From positions 86,337 through 150,336 of the IMG/VR virus record IMGVR_UViG_3300042197_002946: 64,000 nucleotides of DNA; one strand, given 5' to 3'. The translations under genes and the position numbers were made by a program. Within the stretch, counting starts at the first letter, position 1. Each line of letters starts with the position of its first letter. Shown here piece by piece: positions 52,183 through 59,053 of this stretch. This DNA is from a virus. A model generated the notes under the pieces. It did no database searches. It saw nothing but the letters and a program-made list of their open reading frames with translations, and was not told where the DNA came from.

Positions 52183-52307
52183 ATTTTCTCCTTGATATTA
52201 ATACTATTAGAAGCTGACGATCATCGTGATAAGGGCATCAGCGGTAAAAAGAATGGTATACATACGATATTGATAATGATTGAGTATCAATTGATTTTTC
52301 AGATGCT

Positions 52308-52775
52308 CTATAATACACCAGACAGGGTATCTAGCCAAGATAGATCTGGTTGAATTTTTTCTATTTCTATACAACTCATCTTCACAAATAAATCAAATCT
52401 TTTCTTGGCTTCGTCATCGAATAAATGTGTTCCATGTTGATCAGACATAACTACTTTCGTCACTCCTTCTTGCCACAAGGCCATAATACAATCATTACAA
52501 CTCTGCCCTGTTACATAAGCTATTCCATTATCTGGTCGAACCACACAATTACTTAAAGCATTTCTTTCAGCATGAATCATCCAAGGATATTTTTCTGGTC
52601 GCGAAGTTGGTAGTTGAGTATCATCCAATCCTCGCGGAAAACCGTTATACCCCACACCCAGAATACGATTGTGTCGATCTGTTATAATGCAGCCGTGTTG
52701 GGTGTGTATGTCGTGACTTCTTTTAGAAACGGCTTTGGCTAATCCTAAGAAATAATTATTCCATGAAGGGCGCAT
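52308..52775 (-). CDS. dCMP deaminase
   Basis: RP.W..YF, GYNG.P.G, HAE.NA, CNDC. Confidence 0.9.
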   Translation of the reverse strand: MRPSWNNYFLGLAKAVSKRSHDIHTQHGCIITDRHNRILGVGYNGFPRGLDDTQLPTSRPEKYPWMIHAERNALSNCVVRPDNGIAYVTGQSCNDCIMALWQEGVTKVVMSDQHGTHLFDDEAKKRFDLFVKMSCIEIEKIQPDLSWLDTLSGVL

Positions 52776-52811
52776 AAAATCCTTAATGTTCGACTACAAC
52801 GTGACGATATC

Positions 52812-52840
52812 ATTGTAACCTAGACTTCACGACTAGTCAA
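52812..52840 (-). promoter_or_regulatory. Sigma70-type promoter for the nucleotide-metabolism/replication operon
   Basis: TTGACT-N17-TACAAT on the minus strand, upstream of the dCMP deaminase. Confidence 0.7.
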
Positions 52841-52848
52841 GACACTGT

Positions 52849-53136
52849 TTAATCTTTGTATGGAATCCAGTGTTTTCGCACAAAAACCATATTGATAAAA
52901 AACCCACAAAAGGCGCTCAAAACATTGCTGACTATTGGCTGAGTCGTATCCTGTAATGGGTTTAACCAAATACTTAACAACAGACTAATCCAGAAACTAG
53001 CACACTCATGGCACAACAAAGGAGTTCGGACGTATGCTATTTTAGCAATAAGGTTACGTAAGGGTCTACTTGCTTCGGTATCACCCCAAGCATAAGACAA
53101 TCCCAAAGAACAAAAAAGATAGATTAAAAAAATCAT
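52849..53136 (-). CDS. Small membrane protein with CxxC (DUF1360-like)
   Basis: Three hydrophobic segments; LLCHECASFW. Confidence 0.6.
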   Translation of the reverse strand: MIFLIYLFCSLGLSYAWGDTEASRPLRNLIAKIAYVRTPLLCHECASFWISLLLSIWLNPLQDTTQPIVSNVLSAFCGFFINMVFVRKHWIPYKD

Positions 53137-53375
53137 TATATAGGCTCGCAGGCAAAGCAGTACATAGTATTATCAGTCGGCGTAATGGTTGGAGTGCCCG
53201 CCGGAACCCCATATCCTGGAGAACAATAATTAGCTACAAATTCCCAAGAACTTCCACCACCACACGGACAACTACTTGGCCCATGATAAAAGTATTTGTA
53301 AATATTACTACTATTACAATCAGCTTTAGTAGTTAACATACTATAAATTGGACCATCACTATTATTATAAGTCAT
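53136..53375 (-). CDS. Cys-rich peptide A (79 aa, 6 Cys) with DGPIYSMLTTK leader motif
   Basis: Shared N-terminal motif; TAATG coupling to the CxxC membrane protein. Confidence 0.75.
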   Translation of the reverse strand: MTYNNSDGPIYSMLTTKADCNSSNIYKYFYHGPSSCPCGGGSSWEFVANYCSPGYGVPAGTPTITPTDNTMYCFACEPI

Positions 53376-53406
53376 AGGTGATATCTCTTTAGTTGGTGTC
53401 TAATAA

Positions 53407-53811
53407 CTATAAGAAATACACCACGACTCCATCATCTCGTTCTACAATGCTAAACATTCTAAACATCTTTCCTGGCAAAGTTGAGGCAAAATTCTGCCAA
53501 GATTCCTCACCTTTTGGAATAACAAACATTCGACCAGCATAATTATTGTTTTGTCTTTCTGCTTTAATTTTATCCATTTCTGTTTTTAAAGCATTAGGAT
53601 CCTTAACGTATTTATTCATTACTAAAGGATCTTTTTCTAGCTGTTCTGTAAAAAATTTGATTACTCGTCCTCGACATGTGCAGTTGGGATTATTTTTAAA
53701 TGTTACCAGATCAGCTAATATTGTTGAAAAATCATTTTGTAGTTGATTAAAAACACTGTCATCTTTAATAATAAAAGATAATGCGTCTCCTAATTGATCC
53801 ATAGAAATCAT
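53407..53811 (-). CDS. Hypothetical protein with an NPNCxC motif
   Basis: 134 aa with a GAGG RBS. Confidence 0.65.
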   Translation of the reverse strand: MISMDQLGDALSFIIKDDSVFNQLQNDFSTILADLVTFKNNPNCTCRGRVIKFFTEQLEKDPLVMNKYVKDPNALKTEMDKIKAERQNNNYAGRMFVIPKGEESWQNFASTLPGKMFRMFSIVERDDGVVVYFL

Positions 53812-53945
53812 AAATAAAATCCTCTTATAAGAATGTTAATGGTCACATCACCTAGAACTATTATATGTGTCTGTGTACCGAACACAAGCGGTATCTTTAA
53901 TTATGAGTTTCTGTATTAGTTCCGTTCTTAATTAAATGGTAAAAA

Positions 53946-54260
53946 TTAGCATGGAGCAGAAGGACAAGTCCCGTTACAGCACCCTGTGCGTATATTCGTT
54001 CCCCCCAGACCATAACAATAAGAACTATAATCCTCTTCTTCAGTCAAAAGGACATATGAATAGGTTTCTGGGGTACACGCAAAATATTTTCCGTCCTCGC
54101 GACTAAAATCTGCTCCAGTGTTTATGTACCCTGGCGGACAAGGATAATCAGCAAACCATTCAACTAAATATATAAAATTAGATGCGGAACTAGCAAGAAA
54201 AATATTAATTTTAGGCATTCCTGATTTTGAATAATTAACAACCACATACCACTGTTGCAT
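53946..54260 (-). CDS. Cys-rich peptide B (104 aa, 7 Cys), leaderless paralogue
   Basis: FADYPCPPGY...YFACTP matches FVANYCSPGY...YCFACEP of peptide A. Confidence 0.65.
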   Translation of the reverse strand: MQQWYVVVNYSKSGMPKINIFLASSASNFIYLVEWFADYPCPPGYINTGADFSREDGKYFACTPETYSYVLLTEEEDYSSYCYGLGGTNIRTGCCNGTCPSAPC

Positions 54261-54272
54261 TCCCCCCGCCCG

Positions 54273-54452
54273 CTATTGGGGGCAGGCGCAGCAATACTCT
54301 GCGGCAAGATGATCCATGGCCTCGCTGACCCAAAAATTATAGCACTGTTGGTACGACGCGAAGGCCTGCGGCGCATTCGGATCCGTTGGCCAGTAAGAGC
54401 AGGAATACTGGCACTTCGCATCCAAATTACTAAAAATTGGTTCATCACTCAT
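54273..54452 (-). CDS. Cys-rich peptide C (59 aa, 6 Cys), not in the ORF track: MSDEPIFSNLDAKCQYSCSYWPTDPNAPQAFASYQQCYNFWVSEAMDHLAAEYCCACPQ
   Basis: Translated by hand. GGAGG RBS 6 nt before the ATG; shares the DEPIFSxLxxK motif and the C-terminal YCxAC. Confidence 0.8.
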   Translation of the reverse strand: MSDEPIFSNLDAKCQYSCSYWPTDPNAPQAFASYQQCYNFWVSEAMDHLAAEYCCACPQ

Positions 54453-54476
54453 AAAATACCTCCATTATATGTACGT

Positions 54477-54517
54477 AATAATATTTACTAAATTTACCAA
54501 ATAATATTTTCACTAAA
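54477..54517. promoter_or_regulatory. Imperfect direct repeat in the divergent intergenic region, candidate operator
   Basis: AATAATATTTACTAAA (54477-54492) and AATAATATTTTCACTAAA (54500-54517). Confidence 0.4.
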
Positions 54518-54612
54518 CATTTATCCTAAACTCAGAATAAATAAAAATAATTTCTCAGTATAATCGTATAACAATGTCAGCAATTGAGACTGACTAACCC
54601 ACGGATGAAAAC

Positions 54613-54876
54613 ATGAAAACCATCACTTGTAAAGAACTGGCTAAGGGTCTTGGCTGCAACTACGTTATCGCCGCCGGAATCATGAACCTACTCGTCAAAA
54701 CAGGACAAGCAAAAGTCGTAGCCAAAGTTTTTCACGAAAGCGGACGCGGAAAGCCAACTAGAATCTATATGCTCCCCAAACAAGTCAAACTCAACATTCC
54801 CACCACTAAACCCAGCCCAGTCTATAAACTCGTAGGAAATAAACTCATCCAAGCAAAATACCGAAAAACAGCCTAA
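54613..54876 (+). CDS. Winged-helix DNA-binding protein
   Basis: TCKELAKGLG HTH, LVKTG, wing GRGKPTRIY; has its own terminator. Confidence 0.7.
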   Translation: MKTITCKELAKGLGCNYVIAAGIMNLLVKTGQAKVVAKVFHESGRGKPTRIYMLPKQVKLNIPTTKPSPVYKLVGNKLIQAKYRKTA

Positions 54877-54887
54877 ATAACCCAAAC

Positions 54888-54915
54888 CTCTCCCTATCTG
54901 TAGGGAGAGTTTTTT
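54888..54915 (+). terminator. Rho-independent terminator after the wHTH gene
   Basis: CTCTCCCTA-TCTG-TAGGGAGAG-TTTTTT, a perfect 9-bp stem. Confidence 0.85.
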
Positions 54916-55324
54916 ATACAGGAGTAAAAGTCAAACTTATACTCTGACTACCGCCGCCACAAGCAGAAATATTATTATTAGAACAGTCTGCTGAATAGCC
55001 CCATGTTTGCCAGCCACTTGAAGGAGGTGGAGAGTCTGGAGAACCAGAAACAAATGCTGCTGGGCCATATCCGCCCCAAAAAAACCATCCACTGATCAAA
55101 GGATAGATGCCACAATTACAAGGCCAATCTGTGAGATAAATAAAATAATAGTCTCCATAATCATTATCGCACCAACTCCCCCCAGGACAATAGCCATATG
55201 TATTATAAGTTAGATTGTTTGGATTGGTACTTTGAAGTTGATTCCAACCACTAGGAATCCCAGTCGCCACAAATCCATTAGGATATTTCCCACTCAAAAC
55301 GCTAAAAATTGGTTCGTTATTCAT
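54914..55324 (-). CDS. Cys-rich peptide D (136 aa, 6 Cys) with NEPIFSVLSGK leader motif
   Basis: Shared motif; G/S/W/Y-rich; start overlaps the end of the adenylating-enzyme gene by 8 nt. Confidence 0.75.
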   Translation of the reverse strand: MNNEPIFSVLSGKYPNGFVATGIPSGWNQLQSTNPNNLTYNTYGYCPGGSWCDNDYGDYYFIYLTDWPCNCGIYPLISGWFFWGGYGPAAFVSGSPDSPPPSSGWQTWGYSADCSNNNISACGGGSQSISLTFTPV

Positions 55325-56519
55325 AAAAATTTATCTTATAATCTTGTACAATATGTTGTAAAGTCTGTTTTTCATCATCACTCAGCTTGTCTTTTATATA
55401 GATATTGGCACTCAAATTTTCAAACTGAACTTGGTCAATTTTACCTTTATACTCTAATACACCTATTTGTTTTTTTATTTCAGTTAGTTTTGTTGGCCCT
55501 TTTAGCGCAAATGGGCGATTTGCTAACATTTTGAACGGTCTATAATATCTTCCACATTCACACAATTTATAGTTGTTTTCTATCTCACATAGATCTCCGT
55601 TCCAATAGTTGATAAATGGAGCGCTCATATTGAAATAGTCTGTACTAATCATTTTATTATCTGGTCCTTGAGTTACCCAGCTTAAATTATCTAATAAATG
55701 ATATGTATGATATTTACATGTAAAGAATGTTGCTCCTCCATCCCAACACCTCATGTGATCACAAACATAATTAGCATATCCTCCATCCAGCATAATCTGT
55801 CGATCAGACTGTCTCATAAACTCACCAGTTTGACTAAATAAATAGCCTATTTTCATTTGTATATTATGTTTAACTAAATAATGAGATAAAAAACTCATAA
55901 TAGGACCAGTGATCATAACAATATCAAACGGCACCAAATCCCGTATATGTAACAATAATTTTTCTATCCATTGACTAGGATTTTCCATGTAATCATCAAA
56001 TCTCACAAAATATCTGGTACTATCTATACTTTTATGAGTATGTAGAGTGTATGGAGATGGTTCTTTTTGTTCATATATAAAATCTACATGATGTGGGTTA
56101 TATGCTAATTTTTTTAATATCAGTATGCGAGGATTCTTTTTTGTAATACCAAATTCGTCTAAGATCATGCCATAATGACACTCATCCTCTAGGAAATCTA
56201 TATGAGGTCTATAAACACCATAACTGAACGGCTCCCCAGAAGAGCTACCACTTGTATGGAAAAGTTGATTGTCTCTTTTTAAAGACTCTACAAACCATAG
56301 CTCTTTTTTCAGATTAGTTCTACTATACATATTTTGTATACTACTATAAACAGGGCTATGGATAGTAGCATAATTTGTTATATTGTGTATTAATTTATTG
56401 GCTATCTGTTTAATAATATCTGGATGATAGAATAATACTTTATTACATATTGCATAATATTGTGGTATTAGGTCGGGGCCGGTGTTGGGTAAAGATAAAA
56501 ATTGAGTAATTTCATTCAT
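55317..56519 (-). CDS. Adenylate-forming enzyme, PaaK/CapK (phenylacetate-CoA ligase-like) family
   Basis: TSGSSSG P-loop; C..H.YH; STD..N...PFINY..GD...CECGR. Confidence 0.8.
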   Translation of the reverse strand: MNEITQFLSLPNTGPDLIPQYYAICNKVLFYHPDIIKQIANKLIHNITNYATIHSPVYSSIQNMYSRTNLKKELWFVESLKRDNQLFHTSGSSSGEPFSYGVYRPHIDFLEDECHYGMILDEFGITKKNPRILILKKLAYNPHHVDFIYEQKEPSPYTLHTHKSIDSTRYFVRFDDYMENPSQWIEKLLLHIRDLVPFDIVMITGPIMSFLSHYLVKHNIQMKIGYLFSQTGEFMRQSDRQIMLDGGYANYVCDHMRCWDGGATFFTCKYHTYHLLDNLSWVTQGPDNKMISTDYFNMSAPFINYWNGDLCEIENNYKLCECGRYYRPFKMLANRPFALKGPTKLTEIKKQIGVLEYKGKIDQVQFENLSANIYIKDKLSDDEKQTLQHIVQDYKINFYE

Positions 56520-57793
56520 AGAACATCTGTCAAGCTATAAGTTTCCCATACCTCTTCTGTATTATTAGATACGTTGGATACGATATTGATAGAGCTAATA
56601 AATAGTCCCAATTCTCTACGATCCAATGGGGCGTCCATGCTTTTAGAACATTCGATACTGATACAGTAAGGGTCGTTATAGCTTAGGGTTTGTTCGCCGG
56701 ACTCTGCTAATTGAGAAATATTTATCAACTGGTTATTAATAAAGATTTCTATATTGCCTATGTCTTGTTGTCTATGTAGAGCCAGCCTTATTTTTTTAAT
56801 ATTATAGCAGTATATTGTTGTGTTGGGGGAGGTCCATAGAACCGTGGCGCTGTCAGGCGTATATTTAGATGATAATACAATAATTGGCTTGTCCTGTTTG
56901 GATATAGAGAGTCTATCTATAAAGAATTGTTTAAGTTGTTGTTGAGTAGATTCTTCGATAGTGTCATATAAATGATCCGCGTTCTGTTCAAAGGATGCAT
57001 TGCTTAAATTAGTTAATAAAGAATATCTATCGGTATAATTTCTATCATTCCAATACCCATGAAATAAATGGGTAATTTGATGATTTGCGTCAAAAGCAAT
57101 GTATGGAGATGTTTGCTGTTTCAAAAACTGATAACCTTTCGAAATATAGTCTATCATATCAGGGATAGTATCCTTTGTTACAGCATTAAACATATTAAAC
57201 GGTATCCCATGCGTACCAATATAAAACGGAGCTATATTGATGACGTCTCCCCCTCCTACAAAACAGCGATCAAAAAACCCTCCAGTATGCTTGAGATATT
57301 CTCTTCTATAAGCAACCAACAAGCCAGGATTACCGCCAGTCATTGTTGAGCTTGTACTACATATATCCACCAATCCATGATCTATTAAATCTATACCAAG
57401 AGTATCTAATAATAAATATTCAATAGTAGAATAGGGTTGCACCGCTACATATGTTGATAGTAGATTACAGGTATCGCTATACCAATTATTATTATTGCAT
57501 ATAATATCATTATCCATAGCTATAATGCCATCGTAGCTTGAAGGGATATTATTTAATAAATAGTTTAATGCAGCTTCTTTATGCCATAGATAGCTGTTAT
57601 TGCGCACTATCCAGTGATTGAAGTTAGAGCCATCAATCATAGACGGCATATTATCTGGCAATACTTCACAAACAAACAAATGTTTTAACAGATTTCGTTG
57701 TCTGAGTGAATATATAAAATGTTGCCAGTTGTTTTGGAAATATGGACTATCTCCATGATTAAATAATGTAGTTATAATCGCAGATCTGTACAT
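56516..57793 (-). CDS. GT-A (GT2-like) glycosyltransferase with a C-terminal beta-sandwich
   Basis: KEAALN, IAMDNDII DxD motif, GGF.D...GGGD, C-terminal DRRELG. Confidence 0.6.
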   Translation of the reverse strand: MYRSAIITTLFNHGDSPYFQNNWQHFIYSLRQRNLLKHLFVCEVLPDNMPSMIDGSNFNHWIVRNNSYLWHKEAALNYLLNNIPSSYDGIIAMDNDIICNNNNWYSDTCNLLSTYVAVQPYSTIEYLLLDTLGIDLIDHGLVDICSTSSTMTGGNPGLLVAYRREYLKHTGGFFDRCFVGGGDVINIAPFYIGTHGIPFNMFNAVTKDTIPDMIDYISKGYQFLKQQTSPYIAFDANHQITHLFHGYWNDRNYTDRYSLLTNLSNASFEQNADHLYDTIEESTQQQLKQFFIDRLSISKQDKPIIVLSSKYTPDSATVLWTSPNTTIYCYNIKKIRLALHRQQDIGNIEIFINNQLINISQLAESGEQTLSYNDPYCISIECSKSMDAPLDRRELGLFISSINIVSNVSNNTEEVWETYSLTDVL

Positions 57794-57796
57794 ATA

Positions 57797-58804
57797 CTAA
57801 TATCTAACGCCTGGATAATAGGGTGGTTTTTGATGAAGAATGGCTGGGTCACACATTTGTTGTATTATTTTAGGATTAAAATCATTATATGTAGTATCAC
57901 TCCAATTAAAAATTAAGCTATTGTATAAATAATGTTTTTTAATATACGACCAAATAATATGATCGGTATCGGTTTTGGATTCGTTGAAATAGTTTTGTAT
58001 CGTCAATAATATAATGTAATCATATGGCAGATCTGAGCCATAATATTTAATATATCTCGGCCACAACTTTTCACATAATGACATAAACTTTTGAAATAGC
58101 ATATGGCCTGTAGCATATAAGGCGGTACCTCCATTAATATGCTGATTTCGCAAATCATCGTAAGGCTTATCGTTAGGACTGTCTGAATGAGAACCGCTAA
58201 TAAGGAAGCTCTGTGTGGAGACATATTGATGTAATCTTTCCATCCAATGTCTGGATAAAAGACAGTCACATTCTAGCAATAAAGACGTATTGTATTCTTT
58301 AATTTGTTTCATGGTCTCAAAAAATACAACGTTAGGACCGTATTTAGAACCATATTTTTCTATCATAGATAGACTTGTTTTTGTTTCTGTCTTGTCGTCA
58401 TAAATGTCGATCTCGTCAGGTATGTCGATAATTAGATAGTCTGCTGTTAAAAATTTATGATTAATACTGTCAGGTATTGTATACTTCTCTATATCTTTAG
58501 ATTTAATAACTAACTTGAAATGTATATTAGATGCTAGTTCGGTATCGGTAGTATCTTCTAGGTGCTGTAAAAATTTTAAGTAAATATCATTTATGTATTC
58601 TTGTCCAGTACATAATAAACAAATACAGTCCCACTGATTGCTAATAGGTTTTATATCATGAATATCTATATCGTATGAAATATCATCCGTGCTCCACTTT
58701 GAGAATCCGTGTAATTGTCTCCAATGAATAATGGCTGATTCGTCTATCAGATTTTCAGGACTATACTTTTCTAAAAATTGTTGTTTTAGTTTTTGTATTT
58801 CCAC
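57797..58804 (-). CDS. Putative GT-A-like protein
   Basis: LLLECDC (DxD-like), HING.ALY, PYD. GTG start. Confidence 0.45.
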   Translation of the reverse strand: MEIQKLKQQFLEKYSPENLIDESAIIHWRQLHGFSKWSTDDISYDIDIHDIKPISNQWDCICLLCTGQEYINDIYLKFLQHLEDTTDTELASNIHFKLVIKSKDIEKYTIPDSINHKFLTADYLIIDIPDEIDIYDDKTETKTSLSMIEKYGSKYGPNVVFFETMKQIKEYNTSLLLECDCLLSRHWMERLHQYVSTQSFLISGSHSDSPNDKPYDDLRNQHINGGTALYATGHMLFQKFMSLCEKLWPRYIKYYGSDLPYDYIILLTIQNYFNESKTDTDHIIWSYIKKHYLYNSLIFNWSDTTYNDFNPKIIQQMCDPAILHQKPPYYPGVRY

Positions 58805-58813
58805 ACTATATCT

Positions 58814-59053
58814 TTATATCAAATTAATATAATACCACTCTGTTACTTTGATATGTTTGGTTGCTCTAATTAGATCAATGGCCTCATCGTTGTCTTCGGT
58901 TATACTAGCTAATAGAAAATACGGCCAAGGTCTGTTGGGACCTAAAGATATGCTTTGTAACAGATACTCTTTTGCTGAATCTATATTGCCACTAAGAATA
59001 CATGCCTCTGCTTTTAGTCCTAGAGCAATCCATTCATTATTGGTATTATCCAT
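58814..59053 (-). CDS. Small TPR-like protein
   Basis: GNIDSAKEYL..SI.L.P....PYF.LA TPR pattern. Confidence 0.6.
   Translation of the reverse strand: MDNTNNEWIALGLKAEACILSGNIDSAKEYLLQSISLGPNRPWPYFLLASITEDNDEAIDLIRATKHIKVTEWYYINLI

Follow-up and report, generated by a model that had tools for sequence, protein, structure and literature searches.

The internal proteins of phage T4 (IPI, IPII and IPIII) carry a capsid-targeting sequence that is cut at Leu/Ile-x-Glu by the prohead protease. In prophage SPbeta the sublancin operon is arranged as sunA-sunT-bdbA-sunS-bdbB, and glycocins are peptides of 37–43 aa whose helix-loop-helix core holds two nested disulfides; a double-glycine leader and an exporter-peptidase of the ABC type go with them. 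BirA with the biotin-acceptor peptide (AviTag) and LplA with lipoyl domains pair an adenylating enzyme with a short portable sequence that offers one acceptor lysine. The present analysis concerns three short genes in the last 64 kb (the window) of a 150,336 bp phage genome from a freshwater metagenome (IMG/VR record IMGVR_UViG_3300042197_002946). An earlier note on the window had described these genes as opening with a common motif, followed in each by a divergent region with exactly six cysteines, and had proposed a ribosomally synthesized and post-translationally modified peptide (RiPP)-like or display system. Direct inspection of the window confirmed the three open reading frames (ORFs), the motif, the six cysteines in each and a 14-mer common to two of them. 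The genes belong to a widespread phage family with an N-terminal tag and swappable cargo, and stand beside genes for a PaaK-fold ligase and two small Cys-motif proteins of 134 and 95 aa.

As in the T4 capsid-targeting sequence, a short conserved N-terminus precedes hypervariable cargo encoded by tandem genes in a plastic region. However, the tag here ends x-G-K with no Leu/Ile-x-Glu cleavage motif at its end, is tied to a ligase and a membrane protein, and can be internal or on giant proteins. Likeness to sublancin and the glycocins lies in the phage-borne setting and in the combination of a Cys-rich product with a GT2-type enzyme and accessory proteins for thiol-disulfide chemistry. The glycocin features listed above were not found here, however, and the phage ligase has no glycocin counterpart; the cysteine spacings of the three window proteins are unlike the nested Cx6C pattern, and the G-K end of the tag offers no double glycine. 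BirA and LplA have a class II aminoacyl-tRNA synthetase-like fold whereas that of the phage ligase is ANL, and transfer to lysine is proposed here by analogy. Mia40 (CPC)/Erv1 with ITS/MISS and the poxvirus E10R-A2.5L-G4L relay are alike in having a hydrophobic signal beside a docking cysteine (PMC2806287) and CxC plus CxxC partners, and the poxvirus relay also in that disulfides are formed by a virus where conditions are reducing (PMC1318495). In contrast, no match of sequence or fold was obtained for the 134-aa and 95-aa proteins, and their redox role is putative. The closest structures to the phage ligase are ClxA, NatL2 and AjiA1, PaaK-type amide- or ester-forming ligases of benzoxazole pathways, which have the P-loop, Y-x-x-G-D and C-x-C-G motifs in common with it; ClxA needs no CoA and couples the acyl-adenylate straight to an amine or a phenol (PMC12519233; PMC9400959). 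Their substrates are small aryl acids, not proteins, and their identity to the phage ligase is 10–17 %. Unlike them, the phage ligase has an invariant Cys/His cluster (CDHMRCWDGG...C...H) and is recognized by none of the curated hidden Markov models (HMMs) of Pfam and NCBIfam, which indicates a divergent subfamily.

Literature searches returned only chance matches to the motif strings and no paper that mentions the motif; no paper was found that joins PaaK, bacteriophage and cysteine-rich proteins, and nothing relevant was found in the huge-phage literature. The region and the ligase gave no match in 50,697 phage records (megablast and tblastn); the class II ribonucleotide reductase alone has isolate relatives.

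A conserved N-terminal tag ahead of unrelated cargo

A 37-position profile of the tag, compared with 1.84 billion representatives at a cut-off of E≤1e-3, matched 66 protein clusters, nearly all of which aligned from residue 1. The tag comprises 13–17 N-terminal residues with the family consensus M-x-Y-[DN]-N-x-G-P-I-Y-S-x-L-x-G-K and the core P-[IV]-[YF]-S-x-L-x-x-K. Many uncultured freshwater phages carry it. Lysine is present in 62 of 62 tags and is directly followed by proline in 21 of them. In a six-frame scan of the 150,336 bp genome (pattern [DNES][EGDNQ]P[IVL][FYW][STA]x[LIVM]xx[KR]), the strict motif had exactly three matches. These are the window ORFs, each match lying 4–14 residues past a stop codon and within the first 17 residues of the ORF. 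The motif or profile scan suggested in the earlier note was productive across the large collection and found no further strict copy in this genome.

The 14-mer CTAAAAATTGGTTC, which supplies the codons for E-P-I-F-S, occurs at 54430–54443 and 55302–55315 only, with none expected in shuffles. The tag residues G, P, I, Y, L, G and K do not change over 22 distinct DNA copies, whereas their codons differ synonymously, and the serine codon is AGT or AGC in all 22 (window, L002, L006, L009, L011 and L037–L040) and never TCN. This points to selection on the peptide together with common descent, and not to a DNA-only signal. The tag is also much better conserved than either the cargo or the ligase. 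Searches with the three window peptides found nothing in Pfam, PHROGs or NCBIfam, and PDB sequence and profile searches were blank or at chance level. The tag is real, portable and strongly conserved, and heads unrelated cargo. None of the outcomes that the earlier note had named as refuting its idea was observed: copies abound beyond the three, the tag does not open one known domain, and partner genes are conserved.

In the window genes (Table 1) the leader is AT-rich and the core GC-richer (0.24–0.33 versus 0.41–0.56). The six cysteines lie at residues 20, 36, 38, 51, 73 and 76 of the 79-aa protein, at 14, 18, 37, 54, 55 and 57 of the 59-aa protein, and at 46, 52, 69, 71, 114 and 122 of the 136-aa protein. 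The tags of the 136-aa and 59-aa proteins are short variants (M-N-N-E-P-I-F-S.. and M-S-D-E-P-I-F-S..) of a kind also found in P0163, P0178 and P0154, and an ortholog of the 136-aa protein (P0125, 143 aa) has the full-length tag. One predicted 90-aa protein (P0173) is built from five tandem copies of M-F-S-V-L-T-N-K-T-G-P, a repeated form of the tag core, and could be a decoy or an artefact.

Cargo length ranges from 24 to 278 aa with a median of 74; many family members have 40–90 aa, and L002 includes a tagged member of 351 aa. The number of cysteines is even in 57 of 61 cargos (binomial P=5e-13) with a mode of six. It spans 2 to 22 across 62 relatives, so that the count of exactly six stands for the three window proteins but fails as a rule for the family, and a few cargos have 0–1 Cys (P0147 and a 277-aa protein of L011). 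The first cysteine lies 0–4 residues past the tag lysine in 50 of 62 proteins, and the last is no more than four residues from the C-terminus in 46 of 61. The cores follow no common pattern. Lysine makes up 1.1 % of cargo residues, compared with 5.8 % in the ORFs of the genome, and 33 of 63 cargos are free of it where about 1.9 would be expected; the tag lysine is therefore often the only lysine in the protein. The 136-aa and 59-aa cargos contain neither lysine nor arginine. Directly after the Cys-free tagged protein of 277–312 aa in two loci is a 170-aa gene with a PAPS-loop-like motif, RSGSYS (L011:8895-9407 and L037:9712-10224), whose product may be a sulfotransferase for that cargo or for the Tyr-rich tag.

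The ligase and its neighbouring genes

The AlphaFold2 model of the 400-aa ligase, built from a 24-sequence alignment, has a two-domain ANL fold (predicted local distance difference test, pLDDT, 88; predicted template modelling score, pTM, 0.80). Foldseek matched this model to ClxA, BT_0428, PaaK1, NatL2 and AjiA1 at E-values of 5e-15 to 1e-11, with a probability of 1.00 for ClxA, BT_0428, PaaK1, NatL2 and HCL. In a profile search of the PDB, ClxA was the sole significant match (E=0.0066), over the region from Y-x-x-G-D to C-x-C-G, and the ribose-binding aspartate of the YWNGD motif aligns with that of YDLGD in ClxA. Residues G91, G95 and D309 are invariant or near-invariant in the 24 sequences. 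By its motifs and modelled fold, the ligase looks catalytically competent. Relatives were found in 33 IMG/VR loci, mostly on contigs of 40–511 kb, and 308 homologues in a large protein collection are nearly all without a name. Two homologues, P0081 (642 aa) and P0120 (629 aa), have an unrelated N-terminal extension of 230–245 residues with no Pfam match; a precomputed PF27674 label on one of them was not reproducible.

The 425-aa protein encoded upstream had been called GT2-like in the earlier note. No Pfam match was obtained for it, and the assignment stands only as a lead from structure and features: residues 1–300 of its Atlas model have a TM-score of 0.60–0.63 to putative glycosyltransferase clusters, and its feature neighbours are GT2/GT7C at 0.89, which is below the lead threshold. 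Orthologs lie upstream of the ligase in L004–L008.

The 134-aa and 95-aa genes flank the tagged genes in L002, L006, L009, L011–15, L036 and L039, the last of which was reached via its tagged protein and not via the ligase. In L010 they adjoin the ligase, the tagged genes of that phage being about 140 kb away; two distant loci, L024 and L026, have both genes as well, and the L021 record contains the 134-aa protein. The C-x-C of the 134-aa protein and the C-H-E-C of the 95-aa protein are invariant, as judged on five diverse members of each family. Neither family has a Pfam match at E up to 10, a PHROGs or NCBIfam match or a PDB profile match, and no match to folds or HMMs of the thioredoxin, Erv/ALR, DsbB and VKOR types was obtained for either. 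For the 134-aa protein, the Atlas model has low confidence and its TM-score stays below 0.4 against all structures. For the 95-aa family, 231 homologous clusters of 51–98 % identity were found, none of them named, and the best 120 of these 231 contain no Pfam domain. The earlier label of DUF1360-like for this protein was not borne out, as five members had no PF07098 match at E up to 10. Its C-H-E-C would be at the cytoplasmic face according to the positive-inside rule. Homology of the 134-aa family with CxC proteins of 111–136 aa in L017 and L027 is not claimed, since the alignment covered 15 columns around P-x-C-x-C with a probability of 3 %. Between 52.8 and 61.2 kb no peptidase or ABC transporter was recognized with Pfam, PHROGs or NCBIfam.

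Further neighbours of ligase homologues were read by eye. They include an acyl-carrier-protein-like gene with a DSL motif (L010:8159-8374), a CMP-sugar-acid synthetase-like gene recognized by its N-terminal motif (L033:7659-8375), and genes that look like GDP-mannose dehydratase and fucose synthase genes and GlmS (L005:7426-10405; L009:4116-5942). Such neighbours suggest a glycan or acyl context and may hint at the donor substrate.

Linkage of tag and ligase and the competing explanations

Tagged genes follow the ligase in L002 (four copies), L006, L009 (two) and L011–15 (three). Each of them starts M-x-Y-[DN]-N-x-G-P-[IV]-Y-S-x-L-x-G-K and then diverges completely from the others. In a distant clade, whose ligases are 31–37 % identical, the order of a GT2 gene (PF00535, E=2e-16), the ligase and a next gene is kept. 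In nine loci of this clade, the next gene has phi-[FY]-[SAV]-L-x-x-K at residues 7–17 (VLFSLSDK, ILFSLTDK, IIFALADK, ILFVMLAK and VVFSLAK are examples; the degenerate form can also be written phi-F-S-L-x-D-K), a relaxed motif that is almost absent elsewhere in these 13 kb loci. The cargo behind it is a Pro-Thr repeat (L016), a Cys-rich protein of 180–190 aa or a giant Cys-rich protein of 811 to more than 1975 aa, in some cases with STIG1-like repeats. Tag length and the spacing to the lysine vary between ligase clades, as expected of co-evolving partners. Eleven natural fusions join, in order, the ligase, a tag, a conserved six-Cys domain, a second tag and variable Cys domains, and one ligase–tag fusion is present in several samples. 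Sizes of cargo in the distant clade and the layout of the fusions fit RiPP precursors poorly. The earlier note had asked whether conserved partner genes accompany the motif, and they do: the PaaK-like ligase, the GT-A-like gene and the small CxxC membrane protein co-occur with the tag. Its second option, that the motif serves an enzyme as a recognition tag or docks the proteins for display, still holds.

We tentatively favour a reading, at somewhat less than an even chance, in which the tag is the common handle of a co-inherited maturation module that includes acylation of the tag lysine by the ligase and possibly oxidation by the CxC/CxxC pair. The module would consist of the PaaK-fold ligase, usually a GT-A/GT2 glycosyltransferase, the 134-aa CxC protein and the 95-aa CxxC membrane protein, and would recognize, through the tag, a varied, mostly disulfide-rich, Lys-poor and swappable cargo. 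The ligase would form an acyl-adenylate and then move the acyl group onto the epsilon-amine of the single tag lysine. The outcome would be site-specific lysine acylation or conjugation in the style of BirA and the biotin-acceptor peptide, by an unrelated enzyme. As a first guess, the acyl donor could be a sugar acid or a glycan from the neighbouring glycosyltransferases, because glycosyltransferases are the usual neighbours and a distant ligase homologue (L033) stands beside the CMP-sugar-acid synthetase-like gene. The CxC/CxxC pair may oxidize cargo cysteines in the cytoplasm. A fuller version of this proposal is a cytoplasmic pathway of freshwater phages in which the ANL ligase conjugates an acyl group or a glycan carboxylate to the tag lysine and a viral CxC/CxxC relay oxidizes the cargo, giving exchangeable disulfide-rich mini-binders that are probably displayed or anchored; taken with all its parts, this pathway is possible but rather doubtful.

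Several observations weigh against a tag-directed ligase. Five ligase-bearing genomes (89, 75, 74, 100 and 100 % complete) are without the tag, so that in them the ligase acts on some other substrate, as it perhaps does in all genomes. The 134-aa protein was present in nine of nine records with both tag and ligase and in none of five ligase records without the tag, among records searched successfully and with positive controls that gave the expected matches. Its absence where the tag is absent indicates that the association of the 134-aa and 95-aa genes with the tag is closer than that of the ligase. Conversely, five tag-bearing IMG/VR contigs had no ligase and no 134-aa protein, although these are fragments, 29–65 % complete, and uninformative. 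Tagged clusters can stand 100–140 kb from the ligase. In G005, a 381 kb phage with ligase paralogs near 54 and 120 kb (L010 and L027), at least six tagged genes lie at 265.7–269.1 kb among glycosyltransferase-like genes (L037, G005:258000-274000), one of them on the opposite strand, about 140 kb from the nearer ligase. Some internal tags of the fusions have no lysine (ILFSLAGDCG and IVFSVFNQEE). In the AlphaFold2 model of one natural fusion, the first tag is disordered (pLDDT <50), so that the model is silent either way on docking, while the second is modelled as the first strand of three in a sheet within its own Cys domain and is not docked on the ligase. Depletion of lysine in the cargo is equally expected from cleavage after the tag lysine. 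The tie between ligase and tag is drawn from gene order, fusions and co-occurrence.

In a second explanation the tag serves oxidative folding alone, as a docking signal. The 134-aa CxC protein would bind the hydrophobic tag, next to the first cargo cysteine, and introduce disulfides, the 95-aa CxxC membrane protein would re-oxidize the 134-aa protein, and the ligase and glycosyltransferase would do something else, such as glycan chemistry. Such a division of labour has precedents in a nine-residue docking signal beside a cysteine (PMC2806287) and in viral cytoplasmic disulfide relays (PMC1318495, PMC9282662), and the DsbA/DsbB pair is offered as a third analogue after Mia40/Erv1 and the poxvirus relay. 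It accords with the invariant C-x-C and C-H-E-C, with the even numbers of cysteines and the nearness of the first to the tag, with cargo that has no signal peptide, and with the presence of the 134-aa and 95-aa proteins alongside the tag and their absence from ligase genomes that lack it. In L004:7225-7404 and L005:7199-7393, where the ligase is 49–50 % identical, the next gene encodes a peptide of 59–64 aa with 12 Cys and a Sec/lipoprotein-type signal (..LFCIGC..) in place of the tag, and neither partner gene (134 or 95 aa) is present in the records; this joint absence of tag and putative relay beside an export signal counts in favour of the explanation. However, models of thioredoxin, Erv and DsbB match neither of the two proteins, the cytoplasmic placement of C-H-E-C is a prediction from the positive-inside rule, and some tagged cargo has 0–1 Cys (the 277-aa L011 protein and P0147) or is a Pro-Thr repeat (L016). 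The invariant lysine, the Lys-poor cargo, the fusion to the ligase and the translational coupling with it would also go unexplained, and we consider folding alone unlikely, though a serious competitor. A cleavable targeting propeptide, cut after the lysine once it has carried variable cargo into the virion or elsewhere, would account for 13–17 conserved N-terminal residues before hypervariable cargo, for tandem genes in a plastic island and for Lys-free cargo, which would be protected from a Lys-specific protease; common tag DNA could then drive cassette exchange, and the break between related strains falls exactly at the lysine codon. Against this, proline after the lysine in 21 of the 62 tags makes a poor site for most Lys-specific proteases, tags are also found inside proteins and in fusion with an enzyme, cargo can be as long as about 2000 aa, the neighbours of the genes are glycosyltransferase, ligase and membrane protein genes and not head genes, and no protease was seen in the module in general library scans. 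This makes a propeptide quite improbable.

The RiPP framing of the earlier note, here extended to glycocin-like precursors in which a leader guides the glycosyltransferase and ligase onto a small disulfide-rich core that is then released, was not supported. The leader-plus-variable-core layout, the many members of 40–90 aa and the company of a GT-A/GT2 gene and putative thiol-redox genes with Cys-rich peptides do recall the sublancin operon. RiPP precursors, however, are typically shorter than about 110 aa, whereas cargo here spans 24–278 aa, 351 aa in L002, and 811 to more than 1975 aa in the distant clade; some cargo is Cys-free, the cores have no common pattern, tags in the ligase fusions are internal and repeated, and library scans of 52.8–61.2 kb recognized no double-glycine site, leader peptidase or ABC exporter. 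Precursors of this kind are very unlikely. Slightly less probable still is a tag with no partner in trans, acting as the first beta-strand of small domains or surviving as a DNA-level recombination scar. The placement of the second fusion tag as strand 1 of its own Cys domain and the strain break at the tag boundary would suit it. The cargos behind this one tag are nevertheless unrelated, a Pro-Thr linker (L016) and a Cys-free 277-aa domain among them; the tag residues are fixed while synonymous codons vary, and the tag is far better conserved than cargo or ligase.

Gene layout, the variable island and implications

The locus is transcribed from right to left. The first operon runs from a 335-aa ORF through the 425-aa GT-A-like gene and the 400-aa ligase gene (4-nt overlap) to the 136-aa tagged gene, whose start overlaps the ligase stop by 8 nt. 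The second run comprises the 59-aa tagged gene, which has its own GGAGG ribosome-binding site, the 104-aa tagless Cys-rich gene, the 134-aa gene, the 79-aa tagged gene and the 95-aa membrane protein gene, the start of which overlaps the stop of the 79-aa gene by 1 nt. Coordinates are given in Table 1.

Table 1. Features of the tagged locus (positions in the 64 kb window)
Feature	Position	Strand	Remarks
95-aa membrane protein	52849..53136	-	three hydrophobic segments, invariant CHEC (C42-C45) and C77, no known family
Tagged protein, 79 aa	53136..53375	-	full-length tag at residues 1-17 (53325-53375), DGPIYSMLTTK
134-aa protein	53407..53811	-	invariant C-x-C (C44, C46), no known family
Variable island	53907..55285	.	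104-aa ORF, 59-aa tagged gene, + strand 87-aa gene and cargo part of 136-aa gene
104-aa Cys-rich ORF, tagless	53946..54260	-	7 Cys; G-rich Shine-Dalgarno upstream
Tagged protein, 59 aa	54273..54452	-	tag at residues 1-13 (54414-54452), DEPIFSNLDAK
87-aa gene	54613-54876	+	lone, inside variable island, convergent with ligase operon
Hairpin, 9-bp stem	54888-54909	both	3' of first operon; can terminate both directions
Tagged protein, 136 aa	54914..55324	-	tag at residues 1-13 (55286-55324), NEPIFSVLSGK
PaaK-family (ANL) adenylate-forming ligase, 400 aa	55317..56519	-	P-loop TSGSSSGEP, YWNGD, CxCGR, short C-terminal domain
Probable GT-A-fold glycosyltransferase, 425 aa	56516..57793	-	4-nt overlap with ligase start

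Contigs X3 and X4, of a closely related strain from another study, align to 52200–53906 and 55286–58900 and stop at both borders of the variable island. Over the long aligned pieces they differ from the window in about 3–6 % of letters, and a further 66–81 letters have no fit to the window. At the right border (55286/55285), position 55286 is the last base of the lysine codon in the tag of the 136-aa gene, and this break between strains hints at cargo exchange exactly at the tag boundary. Elsewhere, a further tagged gene lies at 117 kb in G004, and the slot that it occupies holds a different cargo in a related 192 kb contig. An intergenic slot between a 59–60-aa gene and the gene for a 307-aa papain-like peptidase holds a 70-aa tagged gene in one phage (L038:4241-4453) and the 143-aa ortholog of the 136-aa protein in another (L040:8001-8432), and is a second cargo-exchange site.

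Within the island, the 104-aa ORF has no relatives in the fetched loci and gave a weak, sub-cut-off match to the disulphide-bonded subdomain of PBCV-1 P7 (E=0.014). There is a faint resemblance between its residues 17–25 (KINIFLASS) and the short tag, of the IIFSLAK type, found in ligase fusions. The ORF may represent a decayed member of the tagged family, or a different one.

Taken as a whole, the system looks like a new tag-guided protein maturation system and not like a peptide antibiotic. If the ligase writes onto the tag lysine, the two would form a new enzyme-and-tag pair for site-specific protein conjugation, and the ligase would be the first adenylating enzyme of the PaaK branch to act on a protein; to our knowledge, no ANL enzyme takes a protein substrate in such a tag-addressed way. 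Should the CxC and CxxC proteins form a disulfide relay, oxidative-folding machinery encoded by the virus itself would be found in phages as well as in poxviruses and giant viruses. The cargo amounts to a library provided by nature, with dozens of unrelated Lys-free domains that are very small and stapled by disulfides, and is a possible source of scaffolds. The apparent swapping of cargo between strains exactly at the tag boundary suggests that these proteins form a fast-evolving interface of the phages with hosts, competitors or grazers.

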